Assembly (NCBI GenBank): GCA_046757025.1
Contig: JBHHXN010000003.1
Location: 35,248 to 99,247, forward strand
DNA: 64,000 nucleotides
Direction of reading: 5' to 3'
Origin: a bacterium
Lineage (GTDB): Bacteria > Zhuqueibacterota > Zhuqueibacteria > Oceanimicrobiales > Oceanimicrobiaceae
The position numbers were made by a program, and so were the translations under genes. The notes under the pieces are model-generated. The model made no database searches. It had not been told where the DNA came from and saw only the letters and a list, made by a program, of their open reading frames with translations. This document shows, piece after piece, positions 38,401 through 64,000 of this stretch. The first letter of the stretch is position 1; every line of letters begins with the position of its first letter.

Positions 38401-40953
38401 ATGAATTTGGTGAACAAAGTTATTTTAGACGGCAAGTACAAAATCGTTCGAGAAATCAAACAGGGTGGCTTCGGAATTGTATATTACGGCATCGATAACA
38501 ATCTCAACAAACCGGTGGCGATAAAAGAAATCGCCCCCACCTTGCTGGAAGATCCCAAATATCTGGATATGTTCCAGGATGAAGCGCTTAACATCGCCAA
38601 GCTGAGCCACAATAACATCATTCACATTTATGAGTTCAGTAAGACTGCGGATGGCCGCTTGCTCATCATCATGGAATACATCGACGGCCGGGACCTGGAA
38701 AAAATTTTGCGGATTCTCAAAAAATCCAACCAGAGATTGCCTGTGCATTTTGCCGTTTACATCATCGCGGAAATCTGCATGGCCCTGGACTATGCGCACC
38801 ACCGCCGGGATGCGTTCACCAACAAGCCGCTGAATTTAGTTCACCAGGACATCTCGCCTTCCAATATCATGATTTCGCGTTTTGGCAGCGTCAAGCTCAT
38901 CGATTTTGGCATTGCCTCGGTTAAAAGGCATCAAACCAAAGAGAAAAAAGATAACAAATTGCGCGGCAAAATCCCTTACATGTCTCCGGAGCAATTGATT
39001 ATGGGAAATCAGCCGGACCACCGTTCCGATCTTTTTTCACTGGGGCTGGTGCTTTTCGAAACGTTGACGGGAGAACGTCTTTTCAATGCTCAGGAAGAAG
39101 TCATCGCCGCCGGTAAAAATCCCAAATGGTTCAAAAAAGCCATAAAAGGGAAAAGACTGCCTTCGAACCTCGAAAAAATCTTATCGAAAGCGTTAGAGAT
39201 CGACATGACCCGGCGCTACCAGAACGCCAATCATATGTACATCGACTTGCTGCAGTATCTCATTTCCTGTAACGAGACCGGAGAATTGATGGACAGTCTC
39301 GCGGACTACATCAACGCGAATTTCTACAATGGCGCTCAGGATTTGCCGCACACACCGCATTTGAACAGCACCAGTGAACAAATCAGTCCGTACGGGCCGC
39401 CCTATCCGCCCACGCCTGCGGTTTCCAACCACTGGCTGCCGCAACAAAATGAGCAAAGGGAGCCGGTCAGCCCGCCTCAAGCTGCAGACCAGTTCCTCTC
39501 GGAGAAATACCGATTTACCAGCGACAGCCGGTTTGCGTCCACAGAAATCGCCGATCCGGACGATGAAGAACTGAAAACCGTCATCGACGTCATCCGCATT
39601 TCTGCGCGAAATCATAAAAAACGATTTTTGCAAGTCACCATGGCATTGTTGTTTGCCGTGTTGACTTTTGGAGCGTTGGACACCATTTACGGCTGGACCA
39701 AAGCGGGAATCTGGGTGTACGACTGGTTGTTTCCGCCAGCCATCGAGATCACCACCATTCCACCGAACGCAGAAATCTTCATCGATGATGAAAAAGTGGA
39801 GGGCGCCACGCCAGCAGCCATCGACAAAATTACGCCGGGCGTGCACAAACTCGAGCTGCGCGTGGCCGGCTACAAACCCATTGTGAAATCTTTATTTGTG
39901 CCCCGAGAAGGCGGCGTGAAAATTCAAGGGGAAAACGGCCAGGCAAATAAAAGACGCTATTTGTTCAACTTCAACACCGAAATCGAGATAAATTCCCAAC
40001 CCGCCGAAGCCGTGGTGTACTTAAACGGGATTCGTTATAATCAAAAAACGCCGTGCAAATTTACCTGGGAAGTGGGCAATCCGCTCTCCATCGAACTGGA
40101 GCGCAAAGGCTTCAACAAACTCACCGGCTACAGCTTGAACACGGAAGAAGGTTTTGATGTCGTTGAAGACCGCAGATTCTGGGATATGAAGGTATTTAAT
40201 AATGAATATAAGGGATATGCCATAACGGGAATTTTCAACAAAGAAATTTATTTTGAATCGGTACCGGCGGGTGTTGAAATTTTCGACACCATCTCTAATA
40301 AATCATTAGGGGTTACGGGCAATAAAATTGTGCTGAAATCGGGAACCTACGAAATTGAATTCAGAAAAAGCCATTTTATTCCTAAAAAAATGCAATTAGA
40401 GGTGGATGAAAAAATCAACGAAAAAGTGACGGCTGTGCTCTCACGCAAGGTGAGATTTTCTGCGGTCAGCAAAGATGATCCGGCCAAAAAAGACCTCGCA
40501 GCCCAACTGGTCAGTCTCAAACGCGGCCTCAATAACTCCTTGCGAAACCGCCGGGTCACGCCATTTGAAATGACTTTGCCGGCCTACACTTACACCGCGG
40601 TGTTTCAAAAAGCCGGCTACAGCGAAGTACAAGTGACGGTGCGGCCCGAGATGCAGTCGGTGCGCGTAGAAATGGAACTCATCAAAACCATTGTCGAAAT
40701 GGAAGTTTTAGACGCGCTCTCGGCTCAACCTCTCGGAGATGCAGAAATTTATTACCGTCGTGCTGCCGAAACGTCGTCGTCGGACTTGTTTTTTGATCAG
40801 ACCGCTGAAACAGGCGATGCGCTGGGCTATCTTACGCCCGGCAATTACATTTTTACCATCAAGAAAATAGGTTACGTACCGTTGACAAAATCCGTAAAAA
40901 TCAATTCGGCGGAAAGCCAAATCATTCTATTTAAACTGTTTCTTTCTAACTAA
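38401..40953 (+). CDS. Transmembrane Hanks-type Ser/Thr kinase with periplasmic PEGA-like domains (paralog 1)
   Basis: QGGFGIVY, VAIKE, HQDISPSN, IDFGIA, YMSPEQ, DLFSLG; TM around aa 412-435; PEGA-like repeats (TIPPNAEIFID...GATP...GVHKLELRVAGY). Confidence 0.92.
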   Translation: MNLVNKVILDGKYKIVREIKQGGFGIVYYGIDNNLNKPVAIKEIAPTLLEDPKYLDMFQDEALNIAKLSHNNIIHIYEFSKTADGRLLIIMEYIDGRDLEKILRILKKSNQRLPVHFAVYIIAEICMALDYAHHRRDAFTNKPLNLVHQDISPSNIMISRFGSVKLIDFGIASVKRHQTKEKKDNKLRGKIPYMSPEQLIMGNQPDHRSDLFSLGLVLFETLTGERLFNAQEEVIAAGKNPKWFKKAIKGKRLPSNLEKILSKALEIDMTRRYQNANHMYIDLLQYLISCNETGELMDSLADYINANFYNGAQDLPHTPHLNSTSEQISPYGPPYPPTPAVSNHWLPQQNEQREPVSPPQAADQFLSEKYRFTSDSRFASTEIADPDDEELKTVIDVIRISARNHKKRFLQVTMALLFAVLTFGALDTIYGWTKAGIWVYDWLFPPAIEITTIPPNAEIFIDDEKVEGATPAAIDKITPGVHKLELRVAGYKPIVKSLFVPREGGVKIQGENGQANKRRYLFNFNTEIEINSQPAEAVVYLNGIRYNQKTPCKFTWEVGNPLSIELERKGFNKLTGYSLNTEEGFDVVEDRRFWDMKVFNNEYKGYAITGIFNKEIYFESVPAGVEIFDTISNKSLGVTGNKIVLKSGTYEIEFRKSHFIPKKMQLEVDEKINEKVTAVLSRKVRFSAVSKDDPAKKDLAAQLVSLKRGLNNSLRNRRVTPFEMTLPAYTYTAVFQKAGYSEVQVTVRPEMQSVRVEMELIKTIVEMEVLDALSAQPLGDAEIYYRRAAETSSSDLFFDQTAETGDALGYLTPGNYIFTIKKIGYVPLTKSVKINSAESQIILFKLFLSN

Positions 40954-40964
40954 TTTTATGTCGT

Positions 40965-43643
40965 ATGCCAAAACTGCTCATCAAAAAAAATAACGCCCTC
41001 ATAAAAAAAATATCGGTTCCAACAGATATTTTGGCGTTTACCGTGGGCTCGGAACAGGGCAACGACATCATCATCCAGGATGAAAGTATTTCCTACTTTC
41101 ATTTGCAGTTTGAAAAACAGGACGATGATTACTTTGTCCGTGATTTGCAGAGCCAATGGGGGACTTTTGTGAACGGCAGAAAGATTTCGAATCGCACGAT
41201 ATTGATTGACCAGGATGAAATTGGCATTGGTACTCATAACATTACTTTTTTAAACGCAAAAGCAGAAACAGAAAAAGCGCTGGTTGCGGAAAATCATGAG
41301 TCGGGTCAATTTGCCGGAGAAACCAAGCTCGAAGAACGCATTGCCGGCATTCCTACCCTGAACAGACTGAACTCATGGATCCACAGCGAAGAGTTCAAGA
41401 TGGAGAAGCAGGGTGATTTTTACATCGACCAAAACAACGGCGACGAATTCACAGAAAGCCTCAGCGAAACCGATGAAATTTTACAGTCAACGCAGCCGGA
41501 TCCCTCATTTAATCTCCTCAACCACAACCCAAACGGACCAAATCACGAGCCAAATGAATTTGTCGATGTGCGTGATAATGGCCCAAAGGAGAGCCCGCCG
41601 CCTCAGCTCGATTTCTCACCAGAGCCAAAATTTGAAGCGCCGCCTCTCAAGACTCCGACGCTGGAATTCGAAGACGATTTCAAGGTTAAATTAGAGGAGC
41701 CCATTCAAAAAGCCCGCGCCGTGAATAATTATTTTCTACTGGGCATTTATGGTTATTACACGGGAAGAGTCTTCCGGCTCAAGCATCCGGAAACCAAAAT
41801 CGGCCGTGACCGCAAACTCAACGATATCGTCATTAAGAAAAATTCCAAAGGTAAAATCGATCAGAGCGTGTCGCGCCGCCAGGCTACCATCTTGTCAAAG
41901 GATAATAGATTTTACATTACGGATAAAAGAAGCAAAAGTCGAACGGCCGTCAACCAGCAAAAGCTCGATTTTAACGATGAGATTGAAATCAATCCGGGAG
42001 ATGAAATTGAAATTATCAGCGACCGTAAAAGTCATATTTTGCGTTTGGTGCAAAAAGAGGAATGGGATTTTTCTTTTCCGAAAAAGGCCGGCTCCTGGCA
42101 TCTCCGACACCGAGTCAAAATTCTCAATTTTTATTCCTTACTATTGCTGCTGATTGCTGGGTTTTTTGTGGCTAAATCCATGAACACACTGAACAAAATC
42201 CTCTCAAAGCCGGATCCGTTCTCGGTTTCGGAATCGCTCTGGTACACTGGCGAAATCGATTTAGCCGTGAAGCCGTCATCGACAGCGCAACTTCAAAACT
42301 ACCTGGCCATTGCGGATTTTAACGGCGACCGGACGCTCGATCTCGTTTATATTGATGAAAACGAGCATTTGATTTGCATCAATGGCAAATCGAAACAACC
42401 GTTGTGGCAAATCTCGGAATTTAAAACGTTTTCAGACTATTCTATCACCATCGAGGACTTGAATAACAACCATCTGCCGGACATCATCGTGGTCTCGAAA
42501 GACTTTCGCATCCGCGCCATCGATGGCAACTGGGGCATCGAAATTTGGAAAAGCCGCATTCTGGCAGGTCCGTTAACCGGGCCGCCGGTGGTGGGCGATT
42601 TTAACGGCGACGGTTTCAAGGACCTGGCCGTGGCTTCCACGGAGAACCTGGTGTACATCGGCTTTTCAGGATTAAAAAATTCACACTGGATTCAAATTCC
42701 AGTGGAAGCGCAAATTCGCTCCATCCTGACAGCCAGCGATATCACCGGCGATGGATTCCGGAACTTGGTGCTTGGAACGGAGTCCGGCAAAATTTTGGTC
42801 ATCGACGGTGTCAAGCAAACGGTTTCTGAGGAAATCAATATCAACGAAGAGCTGAATAAAGCCAGTGGCAGCTACTTTCAGGACAACCAGATCCGCTATC
42901 CCATAGCTACCGGTGATTTGAACGGCGATACGGTGAACGACCTGCTCATTTGCACACTGCAAGGCAACCTCATTGCTATCGACGGCCTGACCCTGGAAAG
43001 GATGTGGTACGACCTCGCCAGCGACAAAGTGAAATTTGAGCATCCCACTTTTCCCAGCATCGTCATGGGAGATTTGGACGGGGACCATTTACCGGACGTG
43101 GTTTCCCTGACTCCGGATGGCAGATTACGTGCGATAAAAGGCGTGGGTGAGCGCAAAGACCGTAAAATGTTACTCTGGGAAATTCCGGCCATTGAAACCG
43201 AATATTTTGTGGGACAGCCCGTGCTGGCCGATTTCAACAAAAATGGCACCGTGGACGTGGTGGCGGTCAACAACCTGGGGGGATTGTTTATTTTCGAAGG
43301 CGTCACTGGCGATATTCTCTGGAAAAAAAAACAGAGCGAACATGCGATCATAGGCTCACCGCTCATCGGAGATTTGGATACGGATAGTCATCTGGATATC
43401 CTCACATTGCGAGCCAATGGCGATTTTGTAAAATATACCACAAACAGCTTAACCCTGGATGGCTCCGTATTCTGGGGCCAGATGTTCGGAAACGGTCGCC
43501 ATAACAGCCGATCATTTTACAAGGTGTATCATACGTCACAGCACTATGTGATTATCTGTTTATCTTTGATGGTCGTCGCTACCGTAATGGGCTTACAAAT
43601 TTTCTTTAGAAAAAAGAGAAAAAAGTTAAGTCAAATCCAGTAA
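40965..43643 (+). CDS. FHA-FHA-TM-FG-GAP(VCBS) beta-propeller-TM membrane protein (paralog 1)
   Basis: FHA1 (ISYFH, DLQSQWGTFVNG), FHA2 (KIGRD, SVSRRQ), TM, many DFNGDG/DLNGD/DLDGD loops, C-terminal TM followed by RKKRKK. Confidence 0.88.
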   Translation: MPKLLIKKNNALIKKISVPTDILAFTVGSEQGNDIIIQDESISYFHLQFEKQDDDYFVRDLQSQWGTFVNGRKISNRTILIDQDEIGIGTHNITFLNAKAETEKALVAENHESGQFAGETKLEERIAGIPTLNRLNSWIHSEEFKMEKQGDFYIDQNNGDEFTESLSETDEILQSTQPDPSFNLLNHNPNGPNHEPNEFVDVRDNGPKESPPPQLDFSPEPKFEAPPLKTPTLEFEDDFKVKLEEPIQKARAVNNYFLLGIYGYYTGRVFRLKHPETKIGRDRKLNDIVIKKNSKGKIDQSVSRRQATILSKDNRFYITDKRSKSRTAVNQQKLDFNDEIEINPGDEIEIISDRKSHILRLVQKEEWDFSFPKKAGSWHLRHRVKILNFYSLLLLLIAGFFVAKSMNTLNKILSKPDPFSVSESLWYTGEIDLAVKPSSTAQLQNYLAIADFNGDRTLDLVYIDENEHLICINGKSKQPLWQISEFKTFSDYSITIEDLNNNHLPDIIVVSKDFRIRAIDGNWGIEIWKSRILAGPLTGPPVVGDFNGDGFKDLAVASTENLVYIGFSGLKNSHWIQIPVEAQIRSILTASDITGDGFRNLVLGTESGKILVIDGVKQTVSEEININEELNKASGSYFQDNQIRYPIATGDLNGDTVNDLLICTLQGNLIAIDGLTLERMWYDLASDKVKFEHPTFPSIVMGDLDGDHLPDVVSLTPDGRLRAIKGVGERKDRKMLLWEIPAIETEYFVGQPVLADFNKNGTVDVVAVNNLGGLFIFEGVTGDILWKKKQSEHAIIGSPLIGDLDTDSHLDILTLRANGDFVKYTTNSLTLDGSVFWGQMFGNGRHNSRSFYKVYHTSQHYVIICLSLMVVATVMGLQIFFRKKRKKLSQIQ

Positions 43644-43690
43644 ACTTATTCAGCCATCAAATTACTTGTTTTTGTAAGCGGCTTCATTTT

Positions 43691-45052
43691 ATGCAAGAGG
43701 GTAAAATACAAATTAACACATCTGCTTACAGCGATGTTGGCACAGTTCGTAAGACCAACGAAGACAGTTATTTCATTTCAAAAGATGAAAGCCTGATCAT
43801 TGTTTGCGATGGTATGGGCGGCGCGGTGGCAGGCGGTTTGGCCAGTAAAATTGCGGTGGAAACCATCAAAGACATCTTTTACGGTTTGGAAGTGGAATAT
43901 GTCGGAAAGTTATTTCACGACATCGACAAACGCTTTTCCAGCAAAAGCCGTCTGTTGATCGCGGCCGTGCGTCTGGCAAACAGAAGACTGTTCAACATGG
44001 CCATGAAATTTCCAAAACTGCGGGGCATGGGAACCACGGTCGTGGCGCTGACCATCGACCACAGCGTGGCGACGATGGTGCATGTGGGGGACAGCCGGAT
44101 TCTCCGCTACAGCGGCGGTCAGGTTTTCCAGCTGACAGAAGATCATTCCTGGCTGAATGAGCTTATTGAAGACAACGAGATCAACGAGGAGCAGATCGAG
44201 ACTTTTTCACAAAAAAACGTCATCACGCGCGCATTAGGCACCGCGCCCACCGTGAAAATCGACATTCACAGCGAAAAATACAAAAAAGATGACATTTACA
44301 TTTTGTGCACCGACGGTCTGCACAACTCCGTGAAAAGTCAGGACATCAAAAAGTGTTTACAAAAAAATAGCGATTCGCTGCATACGGTGACGAAAAAACT
44401 CATCGAAAAAGCCAAAGTACGGGACGGCTCCGACAACATTACCACCGCGGTGGTACGGGTTAATCAGAACAGCAACAATTCGGATGCCGCATGTGTTTCA
44501 GCTACCATTCCCAATGAGGACGAAAAAATAGAAACCAGGGAAGATAAATTCATCCAGGAACGATATGGAGATTCTAAACAGAATGTGACCCACAAACCCC
44601 ATTTGACCATGAATTTTCAACAAAAATTGAGAATGGCCGGTATCATACTGGTCATCGCCTTATTCAGTTTTTTACTGGGCGTCAAATTGAACGCGTCGAA
44701 ACCCATTCCCGCATCGACACGGATGCCGGCCATTGAAAGCACCCTCAATAGCCAAAGCGGCCATAGCGGGAGCTCAAATATTCCGGCCACTGGCAAACAG
44801 CGCACGCAGCCCGGCGCGGTAATTAAACGCAGCGCCCTGACAAAAAATGCGGTGTTAGCCATCGTGTTTTTCAACAGCACACAGGATTTTGTCGATGCCC
44901 GCATGGATGAGCGCAGTCTGGTGCTGGATAAATTGTATCCGTACCAAGACGGGGGTAATTACAACAATTTCTCGATCTTTGTGATCGATTCAACCAACAA
45001 CGTAATTTACAAAACCTCCGGCTTTCAACTGCCGGATTTATTTGCAATGTAA
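43691..45052 (+). CDS. Stp1/PstP-like PP2C Ser/Thr phosphatase with TM and extracytoplasmic tail
   Basis: SDVGTVRKTNED, VCDGMGG, GMGTT, HVGDSR, QLTEDHS, NVITRALG, LCTDGL, GSDNIT; TM GIILVIALFSFLLGV. Confidence 0.93.
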   Translation: MQEGKIQINTSAYSDVGTVRKTNEDSYFISKDESLIIVCDGMGGAVAGGLASKIAVETIKDIFYGLEVEYVGKLFHDIDKRFSSKSRLLIAAVRLANRRLFNMAMKFPKLRGMGTTVVALTIDHSVATMVHVGDSRILRYSGGQVFQLTEDHSWLNELIEDNEINEEQIETFSQKNVITRALGTAPTVKIDIHSEKYKKDDIYILCTDGLHNSVKSQDIKKCLQKNSDSLHTVTKKLIEKAKVRDGSDNITTAVVRVNQNSNNSDAACVSATIPNEDEKIETREDKFIQERYGDSKQNVTHKPHLTMNFQQKLRMAGIILVIALFSFLLGVKLNASKPIPASTRMPAIESTLNSQSGHSGSSNIPATGKQRTQPGAVIKRSALTKNAVLAIVFFNSTQDFVDARMDERSLVLDKLYPYQDGGNYNNFSIFVIDSTNNVIYKTSGFQLPDLFAM

Positions 45053-45445
45053 ATGTTTCTATTTATTGCACCCATTGCGTTAATGGCCGTTTTTCTGGCC
45101 GTGGGCCTGGTCTGGTTTACGCCAGAATGGCGAGCGAATTATTTTTTGTGGAGAGGCAACACCCGCAAAGCGCGAAAAATTTATGAATACCTGCTGATCC
45201 AGAATCCGGAAAAAGTACATTTGTACCGCAAGCTCGGGCAAATTTATATTATGGAAAAGCGGCACGATCGCAAAGCCATCAGAGTATTTGAAGTGATCGT
45301 CAAACTTAAAATACCGTTTGAGTGGCTGGACGACATTTTACCTTTAGTGGCAAAATATTATATCATCGAAGGCCGGAAAGATTCCGAAGCCATCAAACTG
45401 ATCGAAAGAGTGGTTGACCAGGAACTCGAAAAATTGACCAGATAA
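45053..45445 (+). CDS. Small membrane-anchored TPR-like protein
   Basis: N-terminal TM; helical repeats LGQIYIMEKRHDRKAI and VAKYYIIEGRKDSEAI; starts immediately after the PP2C stop. Confidence 0.7.
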   Translation: MFLFIAPIALMAVFLAVGLVWFTPEWRANYFLWRGNTRKARKIYEYLLIQNPEKVHLYRKLGQIYIMEKRHDRKAIRVFEVIVKLKIPFEWLDDILPLVAKYYIIEGRKDSEAIKLIERVVDQELEKLTR

Positions 45446-45459
45446 CAGAACGATTCAAC

Positions 45460-47946: not shown

Positions 47947-48089
47947 TAAACGGTGATTATGATAAAAATTATTAACAAAACAAGATATCCGGCCACCACC
48001 GGACCGGCAAGGAGGTGATCGAGTAATTCCGGGGGCAATTAACCAACATCTCATGAATAACAGAAACCGAAAACGAAGGAGATTCAACT

Positions 48090-48503
48090 ATGGGACAACA
48101 ACAACTCTTACTAATCGTACTGAGCGCTATCATTGTGGGGATAGCCATCGTCGTTGGTATTAATTTGGTTACTACCAGCGCCGGGCAGGCCAACTTTGAC
48201 GCGGTGATGCAAGACCTGATAACCCTTGGAGAAAGAGCCAGAGAATGGTACCGCAAACCAGCCTTATCCGGTGGCGGCGGCAACTCTTTCGCTGCTCTGA
48301 CCAACGATGCGGCCATGAACAGCCTGTTAGGATGGCCGTCAAGCAATGAAAACGGCACCTATTCCGTGCAAACGGCCGGAAGTGCGACTTCCGTGACGTT
48401 CCAAGGAATAGGTGTGGAAGATTTGGACGCCAATGGCACTTTATTAAACATCAGCGTTACGGCCTATCGAGATAGCCTGGTAACCACTATCAACGACCGA
48501 TAA
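48090..48503 (+). CDS. Probable major type IV pilin-like protein lacking a prepilin leader
   Basis: MGQQQLLLIVLSAIIVGIAIVVGINL hydrophobic helix, 137 aa, strong AAGGAGA RBS, directly upstream of pilC/pilB/pilT; no G-FxxxE motif and no Cys. Confidence 0.7.
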   Translation: MGQQQLLLIVLSAIIVGIAIVVGINLVTTSAGQANFDAVMQDLITLGERAREWYRKPALSGGGGNSFAALTNDAAMNSLLGWPSSNENGTYSVQTAGSATSVTFQGIGVEDLDANGTLLNISVTAYRDSLVTTINDR

Positions 48504-48546: not shown

Positions 48547-48572
48547 AAATGAACTTTCTCAAGAAAAAGATT

Positions 48573-51750: not shown

Positions 51751-51794
51751 TGCAATGAATTTCCAGCATAATTATTTTAGCAGATTTGAATGAA

Positions 51795-55252: not shown

Positions 55253-55306
55253 AAAGTGCCGGGTAGCGATAATTTCATCATCAAATAAACCAAAACAGGG
55301 ATATCG

Positions 55307-56203
55307 GTGTTTGCAAAAAGAAACAGTGTTACGCTGGGCATTTTATGGGTGCTGCTTTTAATTATCGGGGGGTTCTGGTATTTCAAAGACGCCGGCAAAC
55401 TGGTGAAAGCCATAGAAAAAGAGCGAAAATACGCCAAGCTGCTCAAAATGTCTCAGAATGAAATCAAACGGCTCACGGATGTGGAAAACATTCACCAAGA
55501 GCTCAACAGCAAATGGACGCAGGCGCCCAAAATCATCATTTCCGCAGACGAGCCGTCTTTTACTTTATCGTATATCAACTGGATCATGACCTCCAACAAT
55601 CTGGTGATCGATTTTGATTTTGTGTTAAACGGCAAATCGGAAAGCGACAATTACACCAAATTCATTTATACTTTAAATGGGGAAGCCAGCTACAACAATA
55701 TTTATAAATTGATCTGGTTTCTGACCTACGAACCCATTTTGTATAAAATCAACTCGCTGACTCTGAAACAAAGTGATTCCAGTGCCGAGCTGCTCAAATT
55801 CAGCATCCAACTGCAAGGCTACACGGTGGACAGCGAATCTGAGTTCGATGAAGAGTTAACCGATTTAAGCCCCAGGAATGCGTATAAATTTTTGGCGCAA
55901 AAAAACATCTTTAAACCGCTGGTGTCCAAACCGGCGCCCAAGAAAGTTGTGCAGAATAAACCGCAACTACCCAAAAAATTACCCGGCCAAATCGATGTGG
56001 AAAAAGCTTCCTTAAAAGTGGTTACCAACAATTCGATTTTTATCTCCGAGGGTAACAGCGAATTAAAACAGTTAAAAGTGGGCGATGCGGTTTATTTGGG
56101 CACACTCGTACGCATCGACCAGAATTCCAATACCGCTGAATTTCTCATCAGCAAGTTTGGCAAAAGTAAACGGATTGTTCTGACCATTGACGAACGCAAA
56201 TAA
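55307..56203 (+). CDS. PilO-like + PilP-like fusion
   Basis: TM, coiled coil, NGEASYNNIYKLIWFL..EPILYKINSL (PilO pattern), NIFKPL, Pro-rich linker, LKVGDAVYLGTLVRI beta domain (PilP/GspC-like). Confidence 0.68.
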   Translation: MFAKRNSVTLGILWVLLLIIGGFWYFKDAGKLVKAIEKERKYAKLLKMSQNEIKRLTDVENIHQELNSKWTQAPKIIISADEPSFTLSYINWIMTSNNLVIDFDFVLNGKSESDNYTKFIYTLNGEASYNNIYKLIWFLTYEPILYKINSLTLKQSDSSAELLKFSIQLQGYTVDSESEFDEELTDLSPRNAYKFLAQKNIFKPLVSKPAPKKVVQNKPQLPKKLPGQIDVEKASLKVVTNNSIFISEGNSELKQLKVGDAVYLGTLVRIDQNSNTAEFLISKFGKSKRIVLTIDERK

Positions 56204-56217
56204 TTTTGGACGTACAA

Positions 56218-57426
56218 ATGAATAAATTTCTCACTGCAATCGATATTCTTTTCATACTCTTGCTCATGATGGCGCTGACCGAGGATAAAAGTTGGGCACA
56301 AGAATCCGTGCCACGGCAAATCTCACCACAGGAATTTGTGACCTTCGATAAAAGTCTGCCCATGAAAACCGCTCTCAGCATTTTAAGCCAGTTCAGTTCG
56401 CGCTACGATGGCAAAATTATCATCGATCCCCTGGGCCACAACATGCCCATCGGGGTGATGGTCAACAACATGTACTGGAAACGCGCTTTAGAATATATTC
56501 TGCGTTCCAATTTATTAAAATACAACGAGAAAGAAAGATATTTTGAAGTGATGCCGTTGACGCAAACCGAGGAGACTGAAGAGGGCGATAAGATTACCAC
56601 CAACACCAAAGAAATTGAAATTAACGCCCTGTTTTTTGAAGCGGATTATTCCGCCTTGCGTGAGGCTGGCATTGACTGGTCGGTGCTCCATAACGGCAAA
56701 GTAGCCGTCAGCGGTAATTTTGGCTCCGAGGTCACCAAAGATCTGTTCCGGGCGCAGTATCGCAACAGTTTTCGCCAGTGGGATGTGTTCACGCTGCTGC
56801 GCACCTTTGAAACCATGGACAAAGGCGAAGTCATCGCCAATCCTCAGATCAAGGTGATGGACCGGCAGGAGGGCAAAATCAAAGTAGGTACCAACTTCTT
56901 TCTAACCACGCGGGATTTTGCCGGCAACACGCGTTTTACCGAATACGAATCCGGTATTATTTTGACGGTCACGCCCACCGTCATGGGCACCCGAGATTCG
57001 ACCTATATCCACCTGGAGTTGAAAACCGAGCGCAGCGCGGTGGCACCCGATCCCGTGGCCGTGACCAAAGCCATCACCGAAAGCAACACCCAGGTATTGC
57101 TGGTGAATGGCGAAGAAACGGTGATCGCGGGGCTTTTTTCCAATGAGGTGAAAAATACCCGCAGAGGCATCCCGATTTTGAAAGATCTGCCTCCCTGGTT
57201 TTTTGGATTGCGCTATCTCTTCGGATACACTTCCAAAGAAGTCAAGAAAAAGGAACTGATCATCATTTTACAAGCCACGGTGCTGCCCACTGTGGAAGAA
57301 CGGTTGAGTATGCGTCTGGGCCAAAAAAATTACATCGAACAAAAAAGACTGGAATTCAAAAGGCGTTTGCAAAAATTGAAAAGCAGCAAAAGCTCCAACG
57401 GCGCATACTATCGAAGAAAAAAATAA
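56218..57426 (+). CDS. pilQ: Short outer-membrane secretin (PilQ/GspD family)
   Basis: Signal peptide, N0-like VNNMYWKRALEYIL, EIEINA..FE..GIDW, GEVIANPQI, ESGIILTVTP, NGEETVIAGL, GIPILKDLP, ELIIILQA. Track start is 56206. Confidence 0.88.
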   Translation: MNKFLTAIDILFILLLMMALTEDKSWAQESVPRQISPQEFVTFDKSLPMKTALSILSQFSSRYDGKIIIDPLGHNMPIGVMVNNMYWKRALEYILRSNLLKYNEKERYFEVMPLTQTEETEEGDKITTNTKEIEINALFFEADYSALREAGIDWSVLHNGKVAVSGNFGSEVTKDLFRAQYRNSFRQWDVFTLLRTFETMDKGEVIANPQIKVMDRQEGKIKVGTNFFLTTRDFAGNTRFTEYESGIILTVTPTVMGTRDSTYIHLELKTERSAVAPDPVAVTKAITESNTQVLLVNGEETVIAGLFSNEVKNTRRGIPILKDLPPWFFGLRYLFGYTSKEVKKKELIIILQATVLPTVEERLSMRLGQKNYIEQKRLEFKRRLQKLKSSKSSNGAYYRRKK

Positions 57427-57444
57427 AAACGATACGAAATCAAA

Positions 57445-57936
57445 ATGGGACAACGAGAACTTTTACTGACCATCGGCGCCATCGTGATTTTCGCCTTGAC
57501 GACTTTGTCGGTGAATCGCCGAAACCTCAGCAATACCGACGCCATTTTACAACGGCAGGCGGAGTTTCTCGCCGTCGGCGTGGCGCAGCGCTTTATCGAA
57601 GAAGCCAAAGTCAAAGCCTTTGATGAGAATACCATAAACGGGAATCCCATCAGTATGCCCAGCGGCTTCACAGGCAGTCCCTTGGGACCAGGCGAAGGGG
57701 AAAGTTATCCTAACTTTGATGACGTGGATGATTTCAACGGACTCACGACTACGGTACCTACGAATATGGGACCCATGTCTGTAAATGTTGAGGTGCAATA
57801 CGTGCATGAAACCAAGCTGGATTCCGTGGTTTCAACCAAAACTTTTAATAAGAAAATGACCGTAACAGTAGATTGCAGCTATTTAAACAAGCCGGTTGCG
57901 TTAACCTATATTTTTGCGTTTCTGAAAAATCCTTAG
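57445..57936 (+). CDS. Minor pilin-like protein (PilV-like position)
   Basis: MGQRELLLTIGAIVIFALTTL hydrophobic N-terminus; FDDVDDFNG; beta-rich C-terminus. Confidence 0.65.
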   Translation: MGQRELLLTIGAIVIFALTTLSVNRRNLSNTDAILQRQAEFLAVGVAQRFIEEAKVKAFDENTINGNPISMPSGFTGSPLGPGEGESYPNFDDVDDFNGLTTTVPTNMGPMSVNVEVQYVHETKLDSVVSTKTFNKKMTVTVDCSYLNKPVALTYIFAFLKNP

Positions 57937-57951
57937 TGCAGGTTGATAAAT

Positions 57952-58524
57952 ATGGATTCCACACTGACATTACTCGGCAGCATCGTCATCGGCGGACTTT
58001 TTATGTTGGGCCTGATGACGTTTTATGGCGGCGTTATCGACAATTCCTATGTTAAAACCCTGGAATTGTTGACACAGGAAACCAGTGCATCGTTTTTGGA
58101 GATCATCGAACACGATTTTAGAAGAATCGGCAGCGCAGTGCAAATACCTGCCAATGCCATCCTCGACACCTCCGAAATTACGTTTTTGGGAGATATCGAC
58201 GAAAATGGTTCAGCCGACACCGTGCGCTACTACACCAGCACTACCTCGCTGGTTGGCTCCACGCCCAATAGTAATGACGTTATCTTATATCGGGTTGTCA
58301 ACGGCGTAAATACCCTTGACGCGGTGGCCGGCGTTACCGAATTTGACGTAGCCTTTTTAGATGAAACCGGACACCGAACCACCGACCTGGCTATGGTGCG
58401 GACTCTCGAAGTTTCGCTAATGGTTGAGAGCATTATGGATTATAACGGTAAATATTCACGAGCATTCTGGAAAAAACGTTTTACTCCGCGCAGTCTCAAT
58501 CGCATTACCAGAACGGATTATTAA
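57952..58524 (+). CDS. Minor pilin-like protein (PilW-like position)
   Basis: MDSTLTLLGSIVIGGLFMLGL helix, IEHDFRRIG, GDIDENG..DTVRYY, LYRVVNG, typical of PilW/GspJ-like bodies. Confidence 0.62.
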   Translation: MDSTLTLLGSIVIGGLFMLGLMTFYGGVIDNSYVKTLELLTQETSASFLEIIEHDFRRIGSAVQIPANAILDTSEITFLGDIDENGSADTVRYYTSTTSLVGSTPNSNDVILYRVVNGVNTLDAVAGVTEFDVAFLDETGHRTTDLAMVRTLEVSLMVESIMDYNGKYSRAFWKKRFTPRSLNRITRTDY

Positions 58525-58539
58525 ATCGATAAAAAGAAA

Positions 58540-59739
58540 ATGGGCAAAGCATTACTCATCATTGTCACGGGTTTTACCACCATCGTTAGCGGAGTGCTGT
58601 TTCACATTACATCCAATCAACAGCTTTCCGCTGCTAAGTTATCCTCGCTCTACAATCAGTGGCTTATTCAAAACAGCAAGGAAAGCGCCAGCAACGCCGC
58701 CACTTCGCGACTGTATCAAAATCTCAATTATCGAGTGGATTCGCTCTATTATAATGTAGGCGGCGTGGATTGTGTTGTAAAAATTACCGACATTGCGGTG
58801 GACTCGGTCAGAGAAGCCAAAAAAATCCTGGTGCGAACGGTGGTCAACTATGCCGACCAGTCCGATACGACCTTCGCCATCTACCAACAGCCGGCCTATT
58901 CTTATTATTATTTCTTTTCAAAGGACTGGCCGCTGCACATCGTTTATGCCACCGGCGACACCATCATGAATCGTATTCATTCCAATGAACGATTCCAGAT
59001 CACCGGCACGCCGGTATTCATGGACAAAGTCACCTGTAAGATGGGAAATTACAGCGACCTGGGCGGCGCCGATCCGAAATTTTTAAACAGCGCTGAATTT
59101 GGCGCGACAGCTATCGCACTGCCAAATTTAACGGCGTTAAAAGATACCGCCCTCGCCGGCGGCGTGACCTATCCCGATGAATTGTGGCTGACTTTCAATG
59201 CCGATGGCAGTTACAAATGCTCCACCAACGTCATCACCGAAATACGAAATTTAGCCGACGTGGGATTTAACGGCACCATCATGACCACCAACAAAAAAAA
59301 TCTCCATGTTAAGGGAGTGGTGAACGGACAGGTCACCATTATCAGCGACGAGCATCTCTATATCGAGGATGACCTGGTTTACAACAGCGATCCCAGGATC
59401 GTGGCCAATTCCACCGACTTTGTGGGTCTGATTTGTGATAAAAATATTATCGTCGCGGATAATGCTGAAACCAGCGCGGGCGTGGAAATACACGCGGCCA
59501 TTTTAGCAAAAGAATTGGTGACGGTTGAGAATTACAACATAGGCGCTCCCCGTGGAACGCTGACCATTTTAGGATCCATCGTGCAGAAAAGCAGTTTGCC
59601 GTTCGGCACGTATGACGGCTTTGGGACGCTTTTGACCGGTTATAACCTGGTTCACGTTTACGACCGCCGTCTTTTCGATCGCACTCCCCCCTATTTTCCG
59701 CGCTACGACCGGATTGAGCTGGTTTACCGTATGGATTAG
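58540..59739 (+). CDS. Minor pilin-like protein (PilX/GspK-like, DUF4900-like C-terminal region)
   Basis: MG-KALLIIV helix; GQVTIISD, FVGLICDKNI, IHAAILA, LTILGSIVQ, YDRRL...PPYFP. Confidence 0.65.
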   Translation: MGKALLIIVTGFTTIVSGVLFHITSNQQLSAAKLSSLYNQWLIQNSKESASNAATSRLYQNLNYRVDSLYYNVGGVDCVVKITDIAVDSVREAKKILVRTVVNYADQSDTTFAIYQQPAYSYYYFFSKDWPLHIVYATGDTIMNRIHSNERFQITGTPVFMDKVTCKMGNYSDLGGADPKFLNSAEFGATAIALPNLTALKDTALAGGVTYPDELWLTFNADGSYKCSTNVITEIRNLADVGFNGTIMTTNKKNLHVKGVVNGQVTIISDEHLYIEDDLVYNSDPRIVANSTDFVGLICDKNIIVADNAETSAGVEIHAAILAKELVTVENYNIGAPRGTLTILGSIVQKSSLPFGTYDGFGTLLTGYNLVHVYDRRLFDRTPPYFPRYDRIELVYRMD

Positions 59740-59832
59740 AGAGAAACGTGCGTGCATGACACCATTTCATAAATCCTGAATTTTAATGGAAGCTATTCAA
59801 GTTATTTGAATCGAATTTAATCAAGCAATAAT

Positions 59833-62379
59833 ATGGAATCCTTGAAAGTATTAAACAATCGATACCAGCTCCTTTCTGTAATAAAGAAAGGCGGCTTTGG
59901 CATCATTTACAAAGGGTACGACAGCGTCCTGGGCAAGGATATCGTGGTAAAAGAGATCAAGCCCGAGCTGTTAGAGGATTCAAAATATGTCGAACAGTTT
60001 CAGAATGAAGCCCGGCATGTGGCGAAAATGAATCATCAAAACATCGTGCACATTTTCGATTTGGTGGAAACCGGCGACAAACAATTCTACATCGTGATGG
60101 AATTCATCAAAGGGCTGGATTTGCACGCTTTGCTGAAAGAATGCCACTTACAGGGCAAGCGCCTTCCCCAGCATTTGGCGGTGCACATCGTAGCCGAAGT
60201 GTGCAAGGCGCTGGATTATGCGCACAACTGCATCATCACCGAAAACAACGAACCGTGCAAGCTGGTGCATCAGGACATCTCTCCCAGCAACATCATGATT
60301 TCTGTAACCGGCGTGATCAAATTGATCGACTTTGGCATTGCTGGCGTGCAGAAAAAATCTCTGCGAGAAAAAAATTACGTGGCTTTGCAGGGCAAGCTGC
60401 CCTACATGTCGCCGGAACACGTGAGCGAGCACGCGGTTCTGGACGCCCGCTCAGACATTTTTTCGCTGGGATTGATTCTGTATGAGATTCTGGAAGGCAA
60501 ACGGTTTTTTGGTAAAGAAGAAGACCAGAAAATTATCGAGCTCCTTCGCAATGGCAAGCTTAAACTCAAAGCCTTGAAACACACGCCCAAACCCCTGGAA
60601 AAAGTCCTGAACAAAGCCCTGGAAAAATCCCTGGAGCATCGCTATCAAAACGCCAATCAGTTTTACATCGACCTGGTCACCTACCAGGTGCTGAATAACG
60701 ACAGCGCCAACATCGACAAAGAAGTGGGCGATTTTGTTTCGAGCCTTACCAATCAACCGGCCTTGGACACAGATGATTTGCTGACGCTGCCGGAAACCGA
60801 TATTTTGTTCAAAGATATTCTCAACGAGGTGGGAGAAAAGACGACTTTGCCGGGCCTGCAGCCGCGTTCCGAAGAGAGGCGCCCGACTCCGGACCAGCAT
60901 GCCGGAGACGAATCCAATTCCCCCACTTCACCAACGGCCCCGCTGGAGTTTTCAGGGATGCAGGAAGATGAATATTTCACCCAGCTCGAAGACGAGGTGA
61001 AAACCATCATCGATGTGGTGCGCCTGTCCACCCGCGGTTACAAAAAACAAATCCAACAGGGTTCGCTCGCTTTTGCCAGCCTGCTGATTTTGTTTTTTCT
61101 GCTGGACCTGGTTTTTCGGTGGACGGCCGTGGGCGCTATCGTTTATGATTATTTCTTCCCCCCCGCCATCAAAATCGCTTCGGTGCCGGCGGGTGCAACC
61201 GCCTACCTGAACAACGAAAAACTGCCCAATTTAACGCCGCTGGCCATCGATGAAATCGAACCGAACAACTACGAGCTGCGCCTTTCAGTGGAAGGGTATC
61301 GGCCCATTTTAAAATCCATTTATGTGCCCAGCAAAGGGGAAATTCAGATACCCGGCGAAGTCAGCCGCGGCGGCAATCAGCCGTTCGTTTTCCGATTCCA
61401 GACCACGCTGAAAATCGACTCGGAGCCGCCGGACGCCGAAGTGTACATCAACGGCATCCAATACGGTCAAAACACCCCCTGCTCCGTAACCTGGGAAGTA
61501 GGCGAACCGTGCCAGATCGAGCTCCGAAAAGCCGGCTTCAACACCCTGACGGGTTTCCGGTTGGATACGGAAAACATGGTTGAAGAAATCGACGATCACC
61601 GATTATGGCGCTTCGAAATTTTAGACCAACCGTTTATCGGTTACAAAATCAAAGGGCTGTTTGGTAAATTTTTTACTTTCACTTCGGACCCAACTGGAGC
61701 GGATATCTATTTAAATACAAATCCCAATCCCGTTGGAAACACCCAGAGTCATAATCAGATTTTTTTAACAGCGGCGGCACATAAAATTACCTTCAAAAAA
61801 AAGGGCTACAATTCCAAATCGCTGACGCTCGACGTCAAGGAGGCGCAAACCCAGGAATTCATCGTCAGTTTGACGCGCCCGGTGCGGTTTCAAGCTTACG
61901 ATGCCACCAACGGTAAAAATCAGGATCTGCAGGCGATGCTGACCAAATTAGTCCGAAACGGCAAAACCGTGTTGAGAAATAAACGCACGCCGGCGAAATT
62001 CAACCTGCGGAATGAATCCTACCACGCTTATTTCAGCAAAAAGGGCTACAAAGACGTGCAGGTTAAAATATCACCGAAAGATAAATTGGTAGTGGCTAAA
62101 ATGGAGCCACAGGCCGGACAAATTTCCGTGGTGGTGATCGACGCCCTCTCCGGCGAACCATTGAGTAACGTCGAAATTCATTACAAATCGCTGGACGAGC
62201 CGGGTGCGGAAGAAAAATTGCTGAACATCACCGATCACGAAGGCGCCTGTACCAGCATCCTGGCGCCGGGGCTGTACTTGTTTACTACCAGTAAAAACCG
62301 CTACGCCTATCAGGAAAAATCGGTGATGATTCAATCGAGTGCAATGAATTTAGTGGAATTTAATTTAAACAAACATTAA
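59833..62379 (+). CDS. Transmembrane Ser/Thr kinase with PEGA-like domains (paralog 2)
   Basis: KGGFGIIY, IVVKE, HQDISPSN, IDFGIA, YMSPEH; same TM and PEGA layout as 38401-40953. Confidence 0.92.
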   Translation: MESLKVLNNRYQLLSVIKKGGFGIIYKGYDSVLGKDIVVKEIKPELLEDSKYVEQFQNEARHVAKMNHQNIVHIFDLVETGDKQFYIVMEFIKGLDLHALLKECHLQGKRLPQHLAVHIVAEVCKALDYAHNCIITENNEPCKLVHQDISPSNIMISVTGVIKLIDFGIAGVQKKSLREKNYVALQGKLPYMSPEHVSEHAVLDARSDIFSLGLILYEILEGKRFFGKEEDQKIIELLRNGKLKLKALKHTPKPLEKVLNKALEKSLEHRYQNANQFYIDLVTYQVLNNDSANIDKEVGDFVSSLTNQPALDTDDLLTLPETDILFKDILNEVGEKTTLPGLQPRSEERRPTPDQHAGDESNSPTSPTAPLEFSGMQEDEYFTQLEDEVKTIIDVVRLSTRGYKKQIQQGSLAFASLLILFFLLDLVFRWTAVGAIVYDYFFPPAIKIASVPAGATAYLNNEKLPNLTPLAIDEIEPNNYELRLSVEGYRPILKSIYVPSKGEIQIPGEVSRGGNQPFVFRFQTTLKIDSEPPDAEVYINGIQYGQNTPCSVTWEVGEPCQIELRKAGFNTLTGFRLDTENMVEEIDDHRLWRFEILDQPFIGYKIKGLFGKFFTFTSDPTGADIYLNTNPNPVGNTQSHNQIFLTAAAHKITFKKKGYNSKSLTLDVKEAQTQEFIVSLTRPVRFQAYDATNGKNQDLQAMLTKLVRNGKTVLRNKRTPAKFNLRNESYHAYFSKKGYKDVQVKISPKDKLVVAKMEPQAGQISVVVIDALSGEPLSNVEIHYKSLDEPGAEEKLLNITDHEGACTSILAPGLYLFTTSKNRYAYQEKSVMIQSSAMNLVEFNLNKH

Positions 62380-62394
62380 TCAGAGGAAAAGGCC

Positions 62395-64000
62395 ATGCCA
62401 AAACTTATCCTCAAAAGTGGATCGGCGGTGTTAAAAGAATTTGAATTGGACACCGCAAAAACAGACTTTACGCTGGGCGCGGATAAAGAGAACGATTTTA
62501 TCATTTCCAATCAAAAGATTTCGACCCGGCATTTTCGAATTGAAAAAGTCAACCACAACTACTACATAGAAGATTTGCAAAGCACCCATGGCACCGTGTT
62601 GAACGGGCGGCCGCTATTGAACCGCGAACAAATCGTGCACGGCGACGAAATCGCTATCGGACAGCTCAATCTCTATTTTGAAAACATCACCAACACCCTG
62701 CAGATCGAACCGTTTGAGGACGAAGACATCGAAGTTATCGACGACGATTTTTTTGAAAAAAATCTAAACCTGGATCGCTCCAGCGAAACCGCTGAGAACA
62801 ACGTCCACGAATCCGTCAAAGCAGAAACCGAGCATTCATCGGGCACGCCCACTGCCACGGAATACTACCAGATAAAAGAGCCCGCTACCGAAACGACCAC
62901 GCTGCCAGTGGCCACCGAAACTCTGGTGGACGAGCAAAAACAAAATGGCGCATCCTTTTATCTGATGGCCATCTACGGGCCGTACATGGGTAAAAAGTAT
63001 CCGTTAAAATTTGGGGACACCAAAATCGGACGGGACGAAACCTTGAACGACATCGTCATCCGCCTGAACGAGCACGGCACGCTGGACCCCAGCATTTCTC
63101 GGCGGCATGCTACGGTGTCTTTCAACCACGGGCGGTTTTTCATCACAGACAAGAGAAGCAAAACCCGCACCTACGTAAACCAGATTAAACTCGACGCCAC
63201 GGATGAGGTGCCGGTTGACGAAGGCGATGAGATCGAAATCGTCAGCGATCAGAAAAGCACGATATTAAGGTTAGTTTCCGAAGACAATCTGGACAGTTCC
63301 CCGCCGAAAAAAGCCGGGGTCTGGTGGATCCGCAACCGTTTTCGCATGGCCACGATCCTCGCGATTTTCTTTGGCATCATTGCATTCGGCGCATTTGGAA
63401 TTTCCTGCGCCAAGCGCATGGCTCTCAACCAGAAACCCAACAAACTCAAATTTATTGAGGAACGCTGGTTTTCCAGCAATTCAGCGGATCGCGAAAACGA
63501 CCACCCACAGACCGCAGCCACCCGGCAGGCCAAAATCGCCGTGTCCGATTTGAATGGCGACCAAAAAGTCGATGTGGTCTTTGCCGACGCGGCCGGTCGA
63601 TTGCAGGCCCTGGACGGCGTCACCAAAAAATCGCTCTGGCTGATGGAAAATTTTCAGGTGCACCCGAACATTCCCATTGTGCTGGCCGACTTTAACGCCA
63701 ACGGCCTGGCCGATGTGCTGGCGGTTGGCGTGGACTCCCGGATGCGGTCTTTGGACGGCAAAAGCGGCGCCGAAATCTGGCTGAGTCCCTTGCTAGGCGA
63801 AAGCATCACCGGCGCGCCGCTGGTGGACGACTTCGACGGCGACGGTTTGAACGACGTGCTGATTTGCACACACGCAGGCCAGATTCACATCGGCCACGGA
63901 TTCATCAACCAGATTAGATGGCAAACCATCCATTCCGGTTACGCGCTAAAGGCTGCCCCTTCCAGCGTGGATTTAAACGACGACGGCATGGCGGATATTT
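62395..64000 (+). CDS. FHA-FHA-TM-FG-GAP membrane protein (paralog 2); runs off the window end
   Basis: Not in the ORF track. Manually translated from ATG at 62395 (GAGGA RBS): MPKLILKSG...ISTRH...DLQSTHGTVLNG...KIGRDETLND...SISRRHA...PKKAGVWW, TM, then DLNGD/DFNANG/DFDGDG/DLNDDG loops. Confidence 0.88.
   Translation, partial: MPKLILKSGSAVLKEFELDTAKTDFTLGADKENDFIISNQKISTRHFRIEKVNHNYYIEDLQSTHGTVLNGRPLLNREQIVHGDEIAIGQLNLYFENITNTLQIEPFEDEDIEVIDDDFFEKNLNLDRSSETAENNVHESVKAETEHSSGTPTATEYYQIKEPATETTTLPVATETLVDEQKQNGASFYLMAIYGPYMGKKYPLKFGDTKIGRDETLNDIVIRLNEHGTLDPSISRRHATVSFNHGRFFITDKRSKTRTYVNQIKLDATDEVPVDEGDEIEIVSDQKSTILRLVSEDNLDSSPPKKAGVWWIRNRFRMATILAIFFGIIAFGAFGISCAKRMALNQKPNKLKFIEERWFSSNSADRENDHPQTAATRQAKIAVSDLNGDQKVDVVFADAAGRLQALDGVTKKSLWLMENFQVHPNIPIVLADFNANGLADVLAVGVDSRMRSLDGKSGAEIWLSPLLGESITGAPLVDDFDGDGLNDVLICTHAGQIHIGHGFINQIRWQTIHSGYALKAAPSSVDLNDDGMADI

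Follow-up and report, generated by a model that had tools for sequence, protein, structure and literature searches.

A gene cluster that joins a pilus machine to a phospho-signalling cassette was analysed in a 64,000-nucleotide (nt) stretch of DNA, here called the window (GenBank assembly GCA_046757025.1, contig JBHHXN010000003.1, positions 35,248-99,247 of the forward strand), from an uncultured hydrothermal-vent bacterium of the Oceanimicrobiaceae (Zhuqueibacterota). The locus consists of two separable and separately evolving modules, a pilus module and a signalling module, and a functional link between them is the best reading, held with moderate confidence, because their linkage is conserved over deep divergence in one clade, the duplicated kinase-FHA pair is dedicated to pil loci, and the cassette stands in the slot of the usual regulators. 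Should the coupling hold, eukaryote-like Ser/Thr phosphorylation would gate a type IVa-like pilus in a bacterium, in place of two-component, Chp or cyclic di-GMP (c-di-GMP) control. The kinds combined in the locus, a pilus machine and a phospho-switch, are known, the variant form itself being new, and the leaderless pilins, which are the most unusual feature of the machine and were absent from the initial annotation of this DNA, may outweigh the kinases in importance.

Positions 38401-64000 hold 17 plus-strand open reading frames (ORFs), all in the same direction and tightly packed, the spacers being mostly shorter than 50 nt, with the exceptions of g5-g6 (143 nt), g10-g11 (181 nt) and g15-g16 (93 nt). 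A public contig (L001) is identical to the 3' part of the window; there g17 has 826 amino acids (aa) and ends at about 64875, some 875 nt past the window, and, since a minus-strand gene follows it directly, the gene cluster ends at g17. The gene order and domain calls of the initial annotation held up: all 17 ORFs are in place, Pfam and NCBIfam confirmed the order kinase-PEGA, 2xFHA-FG-GAP, PP2C, TPR, TPR-kinase-like, g6, PilC, PilB-like, PilT, PilN/SPOR, g11, secretin, g13-g15, kinase-PEGA, 2xFHA-FG-GAP, and each call was either confirmed or made plausible by these models and by structure and profile checks. The genes are as follows.

38401-40953, plus strand: g1 (K1), membrane Ser/Thr kinase whose periplasmic part has PEGA and CarboxypepD_reg-like domains (Pkinase 135.6 bits, PEGA 72.4 bits)
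40965-43643, plus strand: g2 (F1), FHA1, linker, FHA2, transmembrane helix, FG-GAP beta-propeller and C-terminal transmembrane helix (FHA 104 bits in 2 stretches, FG-GAP_3 72 bits)
43691-45052, plus strand: g3, PP2C phosphatase with a transmembrane helix and an extracytoplasmic tail (PP2C_2 45.5 bits, PP2C 32.3 bits; DGMGG, TDGL and DN motifs read in the translation)
45053-45445, plus strand: g4, small membrane-anchored TPR protein (weak TPR matches; position kept in orthologous loci)
45460-47946, plus strand: g5, cytoplasmic protein with TPR, a degenerate cyclase-like domain and a predicted pseudokinase (Pkinase 132.6 bits)
48090-48503, plus strand: g6, major pilin-like protein, leaderless (MGQQQLLL...; N-terminal helix and sheet in the model, no Pfam or NCBIfam match)
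48549-49916, plus strand: g7, PilC/GspF platform protein (T2SSF 105.8 bits, 2 stretches)
49927-51750, plus strand: g8, PilB-type extension ATPase with one MshEN-like motif (T2SSE 343 bits)
51786-53027, plus strand: g9, PilT-type retraction ATPase, extended at its N-terminus by about 50 aa (TIGR01420 324.1 bits, cut-off 319.1)
53041-55125, plus strand: g10, PilM-PilN fusion with a C-terminal SPOR domain (Foldseek match to PilM 5eou, E 3e-13; PilN 3jc8, E 5.7e-9; SPOR 22.2 bits, cut-off 21)
55307-56203, plus strand: g11, PilO-like by way of its orthologues, with an extra C-terminal domain
56206-57426, plus strand: g12, short secretin of 406 aa (Secretin 98.3 bits, residues 202-360)
57445-57936, plus strand: g13, minor pilin-like protein, leaderless (MGQRELLL), Glu5 counted from Met1 (hhalign to the g6 family, E 2.7e-4)
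57943-58524, plus strand: g14, minor pilin-like protein with its probable start at ATG 57952 (L001 gene call; N-terminal hydrophobic helix; hhalign to g13, E 4.9e-4)
58540-59739, plus strand: g15, minor pilin-like protein of large size, leaderless (MGKALLIIV; residues 1-63 align with the g13 family in hhalign, E 5.8e-6)
59833-62379, plus strand: g16 (K2), second kinase-PEGA protein, paralogue of g1, with 3 PEGA domains (Pkinase 146.6 bits, PEGA 93.3 bits)
62395-64000, plus strand: g17 (F2), second protein with two FHA domains, transmembrane helix and FG-GAP propeller, cut at the window end (FHA 111.8 bits; FG-GAP)

Linkage of the two modules and the regulatory swap

The pil genes were surveyed with PilMN as anchor in 185,579 species-representative genomes, which gave 43 loci, annotated by phmmer with the window proteins; no cultured carrier of the pil locus was found among these representatives. 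The pil core, pilin-PilC-PilB-(g13-g14-g15)-PilT-PilMN-g11-secretin, is conserved in metagenome-assembled genomes labelled KSB1, Calditrichaceae or Caldithrix and in Zhuqueibacter, Latescibacterota, Neomarinimicrobiota and Cloacimonadota, and is typical of several candidate phyla within the FCB group (Fibrobacterota-Chlorobiota-Bacteroidota). Only in the near clade, defined by a PilMN at least 47% identical to that of the window, is this core flanked by kinase, FHA and PP2C genes, so that the joining of pilus and signalling modules is confined to the window's clade. Within it, the 5' cassette (g1 to g5 in the window) is present in all nine loci of GTDB species whose 5' flank is covered, and the 3' kinase-FHA pair in 9 of 11 loci, the adjacency being retained among proteins diverged to about 35-50% identity. 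Further pil-linked loci were found in metagenomes (L047, L052, L057, L058, L089, L091, L093, L094, L095 and L100), the window-type arrangement being present in L047, L052 and L095, and the 3' pair directly following the secretin or the minor pilins elsewhere. In L057 (7627-11774), L091 (7624-10943), L093 (12498-16618) and L100 (11920-16175) the 3' pair is followed by TPR and TPR-pseudokinase genes of its own, without a PP2C gene.

A second survey was anchored on the FHA-propeller protein, and 66 such proteins were placed in a neighbour-joining tree without bootstrap. In this tree all the 3'-side proteins (F2) form one clade, each member of which, where the context is resolved, follows pil genes, and the 5'-side proteins linked to pil genes group together in a single clade, which lies among the proteins of stand-alone cassettes. 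Chance neighbourhood, considered as the principal explanation, was rejected, since the K2-F2 lineage exclusively adjoins pil genes.

The third line of evidence comes from the region upstream of the pilin. In three loci of sister lineages (L120-L122), the same pilin-PilC-PilB cluster carries a PilR-like sigma-54 activator (REC, Sigma54_activat and HTH domains) just upstream of the leaderless pilin. In L122 a small REC-only gene lies between activator and pilin, and a histidine kinase (HisKA/HATPase_c) just upstream of the activator; in L121 a PilS-like kinase lies inside the cluster, and all three clusters hold further response regulators. The regulator genes lie at:

8258-9667 in L120
7853-9226 and 15985-16887 in L121
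6589-9043 in L122

Moreover, sigma-54 promoters of the form TGGCAC-N5-TTGC were found 71-86 nt upstream of the pilins of Cloacimonadota (L036, L037 and L040), and near-consensus sites in L120 and L121. The window's clade, unlike T4aP (type IVa pili), is without PilSR/sigma-54 control, neither a PilR/PilS-type regulator nor a sigma-54 promoter having been found upstream of its pilin. The kinase cassette occupies the slot where sister lineages carry PilS/PilR-type sigma-54 control and, as these lineages retain PilSR at the same position, the regulatory swap is directly testable.

Signalling proteins and the proposed phospho-switch

The two kinase and FHA modules described in the initial annotation as paralogous are indeed so, because g1 and g16 are 39% identical over their full length and g2 and g17 33-41% identical. 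The Gly-loop, the VAIK Lys, the catalytic Asp, the Asn and the DFG motif are invariant across 60 members of the g1/g16 kinase family, and both proteins have the residues expected of an active Hanks-type Ser/Thr kinase, an activity which is predicted for them. C-terminal to the kinase domain, over residues 275-420, one Thr only is invariant (60/60 kinases), in the context (K/R)-T-(V/I)-I-D-(V/I)-x-R (K-T-V-I-D in g1) directly before the membrane helix. Its codons are:

39577-39579, plus strand: T393 of g1
61003-61005, plus strand: T391 of g16

Since TxxD is a classical FHA-binding context, this motif suggests that the invariant Thr is a specific and testable candidate docking site. As regards the partner protein, G280, R281, S303, R304, R305, S323, R326 and N330 of FHA2 (GR/SRR(H/Q)/S..R..N) are invariant in an alignment of 18 sequences, in which FHA1 is without the Arg after G28. 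FHA2 keeps the phospho-Thr-binding residues and is predicted to bind phospho-Thr. The metal-binding motifs of the PP2C phosphatase are intact in g3.

The large TPR protein g5 had been read as a TPR-pseudocyclase-pseudokinase, of which the last part is the firmer. Its kinase-like domain has H-x-N in place of HRD and DF(L/R/Q/V) in place of DFG in 12 of 12 orthologues, the VAIK Lys being retained, and by these residues it is a conserved pseudokinase. The middle domain, searched as a profile of about 200 residues, has a weak match of about 95 residues to Ma1120, a class III cyclase (E 0.008), the next match being a GGDEF protein at E 0.58; the catalytic residues of a class III cyclase are absent, the positions of the metal-binding Asp being occupied by E/A/T and N. 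The name pseudocyclase is thus plausible, the likeness at the fold level being weak.

From the gene content, the domains, the conservation of catalytic residues, the synteny and the regulatory swap observed here we infer each biochemical step of the switch, its target, the direction of the signal and the way in which extension or retraction would be affected. In the most likely mechanism, a cue from the envelope or the surface would act on the ectodomains of the cassette, upon which the kinase would phosphorylate its own invariant juxtamembrane Thr in (K/R)-T-(V/I)-I-D. The FHA2 domain of the partner protein would then dock on the phospho-Thr, and the PP2C phosphatase would reset the phosphorylation state. 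The TPR-pseudokinase, as a scaffold, would relay this state to PilB, PilT or PilM-N, as motor or platform of the pilus, and its extension or retraction would thereby be gated post-translationally.

Several observations weigh against this reading. At the level of distribution, none of 25 more distant loci (among them those of the 33%-identity KSB1 clade, Latescibacterota, Neomarinimicrobiota and Cloacimonadota) has kinase, FHA or PP2C genes within 10 kb of the pil core, and in two loci of the near clade, L012 and L015, housekeeping genes replace the 3' pair. The five-gene cassette, in turn, stands alone in at least 12 loci (L046, L059, L063, L065, L066, L071, L072, L078, L085, L096, L099 and L106), the downstream 2.5 kb or more being free of pil genes, and so did not originate as a pilus-specific module. 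At the level of the proteins, the catalytic loop of the 60 kinases (38842-38865 in g1, 60265-60288 in g16) reads HQD(I/V)SPxN and not HRDLKPxN, the usual Arg and Lys being replaced, so that by its residues the family is of the non-RD type, without the usual loop Lys. The FHA domains of g2 and g17 also pass the threshold of Yop-YscD_cpl, a model with structural members. When PilB, PilC, PilT, PilMN, g11 and the secretin were scanned for Thr whose conservation is limited to the kinase-linked clades, a few columns but no convincing phospho-site came out. Furthermore, residues 22-45 of PilB (49990-50061) form one 24-residue MshEN-type motif, RLSEALINRGIITEDMIQRAVDIQ, which a strict pattern finds in the window's PilB, in 9 of 15 orthologues of the near clade and in none of the distant clades, the NCBIfam match reaching only E 0.003; this motif hints at c-di-GMP binding by PilB, and c-di-GMP control may also operate.

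The link between phospho-signalling and pilus is not an ancestral one, nor is it obligatory, and the cassette forms an independent module. The conserved synteny expected in the initial annotation is borne out in the near clade; in the 25 distant loci the unlinked state, which had been named beforehand as speaking against the idea, is what was found. The proposal of a pilus switched by Thr phosphorylation fares likewise, near-clade synteny, a 3' pair lineage confined to pil loci and PilR/PilS at the same position in sister lineages speaking for it, and the independence of the cassette and the pil cores devoid of kinase and FHA genes against it.

These last facts are the ones which a general role in envelope signalling would explain. 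On this account the cassette would serve cell-wall or outer-membrane homeostasis, its adjacency to pil genes being due to shared expression or to historical rearrangement. Besides the pil clusters without a cassette, the neighbours of the stand-alone cassettes are varied and unrelated (DAHP synthase, CBM9/DUF5916, ETF and AMP-binding enzymes), the surroundings upstream of the window's cassette are envelope-themed (Mla, SLT, GAF-SpoIIE/RsbW/STAS), and all three membrane components have ectodomains, a trait shared with the actinobacterial PknB/PstP/FhaA system. Nevertheless, a general module would hardly be expected to keep its adjacency to pil genes at about 35-50% protein identity, to have a duplicated K2-F2 lineage beside pil genes only, or to replace PilSR-type regulators at the same position, and we consider this explanation rather unlikely.

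The flow of information might also be reversed, the pilus being the sensor of surface contact or retraction load and the kinase, FHA and PP2C proteins relaying its state to other targets in the cell, as Pil-Chp does in Pseudomonas. The synteny fits this direction equally, the cassette encodes no DNA-binding or obvious output domain, and the periplasmic propeller and PEGA domains could contact parts of the pilus or of the alignment complex. However, such a contact between ectodomains and pilus is itself only presumed, and cassettes also stand without an adjacent pilus, which makes the reverse flow distinctly unlikely.

The pilus machine and its leaderless pilins

The pilus module is, by its sequences, closest to T4aP. 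As in the T4aP of P. aeruginosa, M. xanthus and Thermus thermophilus, there are PilB-type and PilT-type ATPases, PilC, PilM, PilN, a PilO-like protein and a secretin, together with one major and several minor pilin-like proteins, predicted to consist of a hydrophobic N-terminal helix (about 53 residues) followed by a head of beta-sheet. The differences are that the locus pilins have neither a class III leader nor an N-methylation motif, that no prepilin peptidase lies in or near the cluster, that PilM and PilN are fused together with SPOR, that the short secretin scores far under the PilQ model, and that PilB and PilC are under all equivalog cut-offs.

The PilB-type ATPase g8 scores best with TIGR02538 (428 bits, under the cut-off of 675.65), followed by GspE (401 bits), Pfam T2SSE being clearly passed, and the platform protein g7 gives 137-167 bits with the GspF and PilC models, under the equivalog cut-offs and with GspF as the best score. 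The retraction ATPase g9 passes the cut-off of the PilT/PilU family (TIGR01420), the model match beginning at residue 53. Residues 1-52 (51786-51944) precede the region of the family model, and PilT lengths of 403-437 aa across clades suggest a shared extension.

The alignment subcomplex is present as PilM by fold, PilN by sequence and PilO by orthologues, with PilM and PilN fused. The AlphaFold model of g10, built from a 21-sequence alignment, has a mean predicted local distance difference test (pLDDT) score of 72.6, reaching about 90 over much of residues 190-330, and in Foldseek it comes closest to the PilM structures from P. aeruginosa (E 3e-13), M. xanthus and Thermus. The family profile matches M. 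xanthus PilN (E 5.7e-9), the direct Pfam PilN match being weak, and, with SPOR above its cut-off, g10 is therefore a PilM-PilN-SPOR fusion, as it had been called. The PilO part of the former "pilOP" call for g11 is likewise sustained, since 5 of 19 orthologues match Pfam PilO (best E 1.8e-8); g11 of the window itself is without a family match, and its profile found no significant sequence relative in PDB. The secretin g12 gives 82.8 bits with the PilQ model (cut-off 284.35), and the GspD and MshL models are likewise far below their cut-offs.

Such scores could also be taken as those of a secretion or DNA-uptake apparatus resembling the type II secretion system, with pseudopili, in which the FHA-propellers would be structural rings, as YscD is in the type III secretion system. 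The near-equal PilB and GspE scores, the preference of the PilC homologue for GspF, the passing of the Yop-YscD_cpl threshold and the shortness of the secretin would all agree with it. Against this, a PilT-family ATPase is present in the operon of every lineage, g9 passing a curated cut-off, the alignment proteins are of the PilM/N/O type and not GspL/M, cassettes without a machine beside them encode the FHA-propeller protein as well, and FHA2 retains its phospho-Thr-binding residues, so that this reading is very unlikely. The separate idea that the F proteins are structural parts of the pilus was rejected, the same protein being present in cassettes without a nearby machine.

The components which depart most from T4aP are the pilins themselves. 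No match of g6, g13, g14 or g15 was found in Pfam or NCBIfam, prepilin N-terminal models included, nor was a class III signal peptide recognised in them. The four ORFs begin at the first possible start codon after a stop, and g6, whose N-terminus is MGQQQLLLIVLSAIIVG, has no in-frame start farther upstream. The g6 family comprises 4350 database members at E <= 0.001, from KSB1 to Cloacimonadota, none with a Pfam domain. Among 37 aligned members M1-G2-Q3-Q4-Q5-L6-L7-L8 is invariant, and the relatives from Cloacimonadota have the same leaderless start, reading MGTQQILLIVLSVIIVG. The minor proteins g13, g14 and g15 share the N-terminal module of the g6 type in profile-profile comparisons, their starts being MG(Q/H)RELLL in g13, with M1, G2, E5 and L8 invariant in 18 orthologues, MDSxLxLIGSIVIGG in g14 and MG(K/R)ALLIIV in g15. 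In classical pilins the conserved Glu5 is position 5 of the mature, cleaved protein; Glu5 of g13, counted from Met1, stands at this position, which in g6 is a Gln.

The AlphaFold model of g6 (pLDDT 90) has a helix over residues 3-55, a short helix and a four-stranded sheet, and by inspection appears to have the layout of a pilin. Foldseek of this model against PDB found nothing significant (best pilus match E 0.9), and the same holds for PDB profile searches with g6, g13, g14 and g15. A prepilin peptidase (Peptidase_A24) was found neither among the window proteins nor, as an A24 signature, in 1.68 Mb of related loci. Two readings of the N-terminus would fit, either an unprocessed protein with Met1 at +1 or cleavage after a two-residue "MG" leader, and both would be non-canonical. 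No description of leaderless pilins was found in the literature searched.

By the accepted rule a type IV pilin requires both a class III signal peptide and a prepilin peptidase, and this family calls that rule into question. Thousands of unannotated members in KSB1, Cloacimonadota and related candidate phyla are missed by the standard pilin models, so that pili in these phyla, which are abundant in sediments and digesters, are probably called too rarely. Taken to its full extent, the proposal would be that the FCB-group pil cluster is a distinct branch of type IV filaments, whose leaderless pilins are assembled without a peptidase (with Met1, or Gly2 after removal of Met, as N-terminus), and also that one KSB1/Calditrichota-affiliated clade exchanged PilS/PilR for a dedicated transmembrane kinase-FHA-PP2C-pseudokinase switch acting directly on the motor. 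This combined proposal is tentative and, as a whole, somewhat doubtful.

Related systems and surroundings of the locus

The literature searched on kinase/FHA proteins with type IV pili, on pili in KSB1/Calditrichota and in the FCB group, and on PEGA/FHA/PP2C cassettes holds no description of this system, in agreement with the initial annotation, which had not recognised it as a known one. The idea of phospho-control is, nevertheless, less unprecedented than was then held, as related machines offer precedents. In P. aeruginosa the PpkA/PppA/Fha1 threonine phosphorylation pathway gates assembly of the type VI secretion system (T6SS) post-translationally. In both cases the genes of an envelope nanomachine have as neighbours those of a PP2C phosphatase, an FHA protein and a Hanks-type kinase which sits in the membrane and has a periplasmic domain, and by this analogy the locus may work in a similar way. 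It is not a member of the T6SS pathway, however, since no T6SS components were found in the window, the FHA protein is membrane-bound with a periplasmic propeller, a TPR-cyclase-like-pseudokinase protein is added, the kinase-FHA pair is duplicated, and the cassette also occurs alone.

In the cell-wall field, the conserved actinobacterial fhaA-fhaB-pstP-rodA-pbpA-pknA-pknB cluster brings FHA proteins together with a Hanks kinase that spans the membrane and carries a sensor ectodomain, and with a membrane-bound PP2C whose tail is extracellular. The locus combines the same elements, namely a transmembrane kinase with an ectodomain, a membrane PP2C with an extracytoplasmic tail and FHA proteins. 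The actinobacterial cluster differs in governing cell-wall growth and division, in having kinases with PASTA and not PEGA domains, and in having neither a propeller-FHA fusion nor a pseudokinase scaffold. In the Sulfolobus Arn network, ArnA (FHA), ArnB (vWA), the kinases ArnC and ArnD and PP2A/PTP phosphatases control the archaellum, a relative of type IV filaments. Here too a set of Ser/Thr kinases, FHA protein and phosphatase goes with a filament of this family, but Arn acts mainly on archaellum gene expression, and its components are soluble, differently organised and without architectural homology to the membrane proteins of the locus.

A further precedent is Kil, a Tad-like prey-killing apparatus of Myxococcus xanthus with FHA-rich clusters and an unusually short secretin, for which its authors proposed a phospho-signalling trigger (Seef et al. 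2021, PMC8460266). Kil is of the Tad type, with a single CpaF-like ATPase fused to FHA and with Flp pilins, and the T6SS PpkA/PppA/Fha pathway is also cited in that work (PMC8460266). Shared with the locus are a machine of the type IV filament family, FHA proteins nearby and a short secretin; the locus differs in having separate PilB and PilT, PilM/N/O, no FHA-ATPase fusion, and explicit kinase and PP2C genes.

The five-gene cassette is a conserved signalling module which is apparently undescribed. It is carried as a stand-alone module by L045 as well.

As for expression, the public sequencing runs containing the window sequence are DNA runs only, from a hydrothermal-vent metagenome. A promoter and terminator scan of 38-58 kb gave counts at or under the shuffled expectation, and an Rfam scan of the window gave zero matches. 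One element stands out in the g5-g6 spacer:

47985-48040, plus strand: GC-rich element with a perfect Shine-Dalgarno (SD)-like core, GGAGGTG, 79 nt upstream of the pilin ATG and with no start codon after it

This core is kept unchanged, 79-224 nt upstream of the pilin ATG, in all 11 orthologous g5-g6 spacers compared (window, L002, L006, L007, L011, L012, L014, L015, L017, L052 and L095). The element had no Rfam match, its MAFFT alignment was not structure-consistent, and single-sequence folds disagreed. It could be a 5' untranslated region element, such as an SD-like stabiliser of the mRNA.

Upstream of the cluster, a divergent minus-strand operon (32490-38099) encodes a GAF-SpoIIE phosphatase, an RsbW-like kinase and a STAS protein, which form a partner-switching module, and continues with MlaE, an ABC ATPase, MlaD and an auxiliary lipoprotein, an SLT transglycosylase lying farther on. 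Neighbours of the same GAF-SpoIIE/RsbW/STAS-Mla type also flank the cassette in L047.

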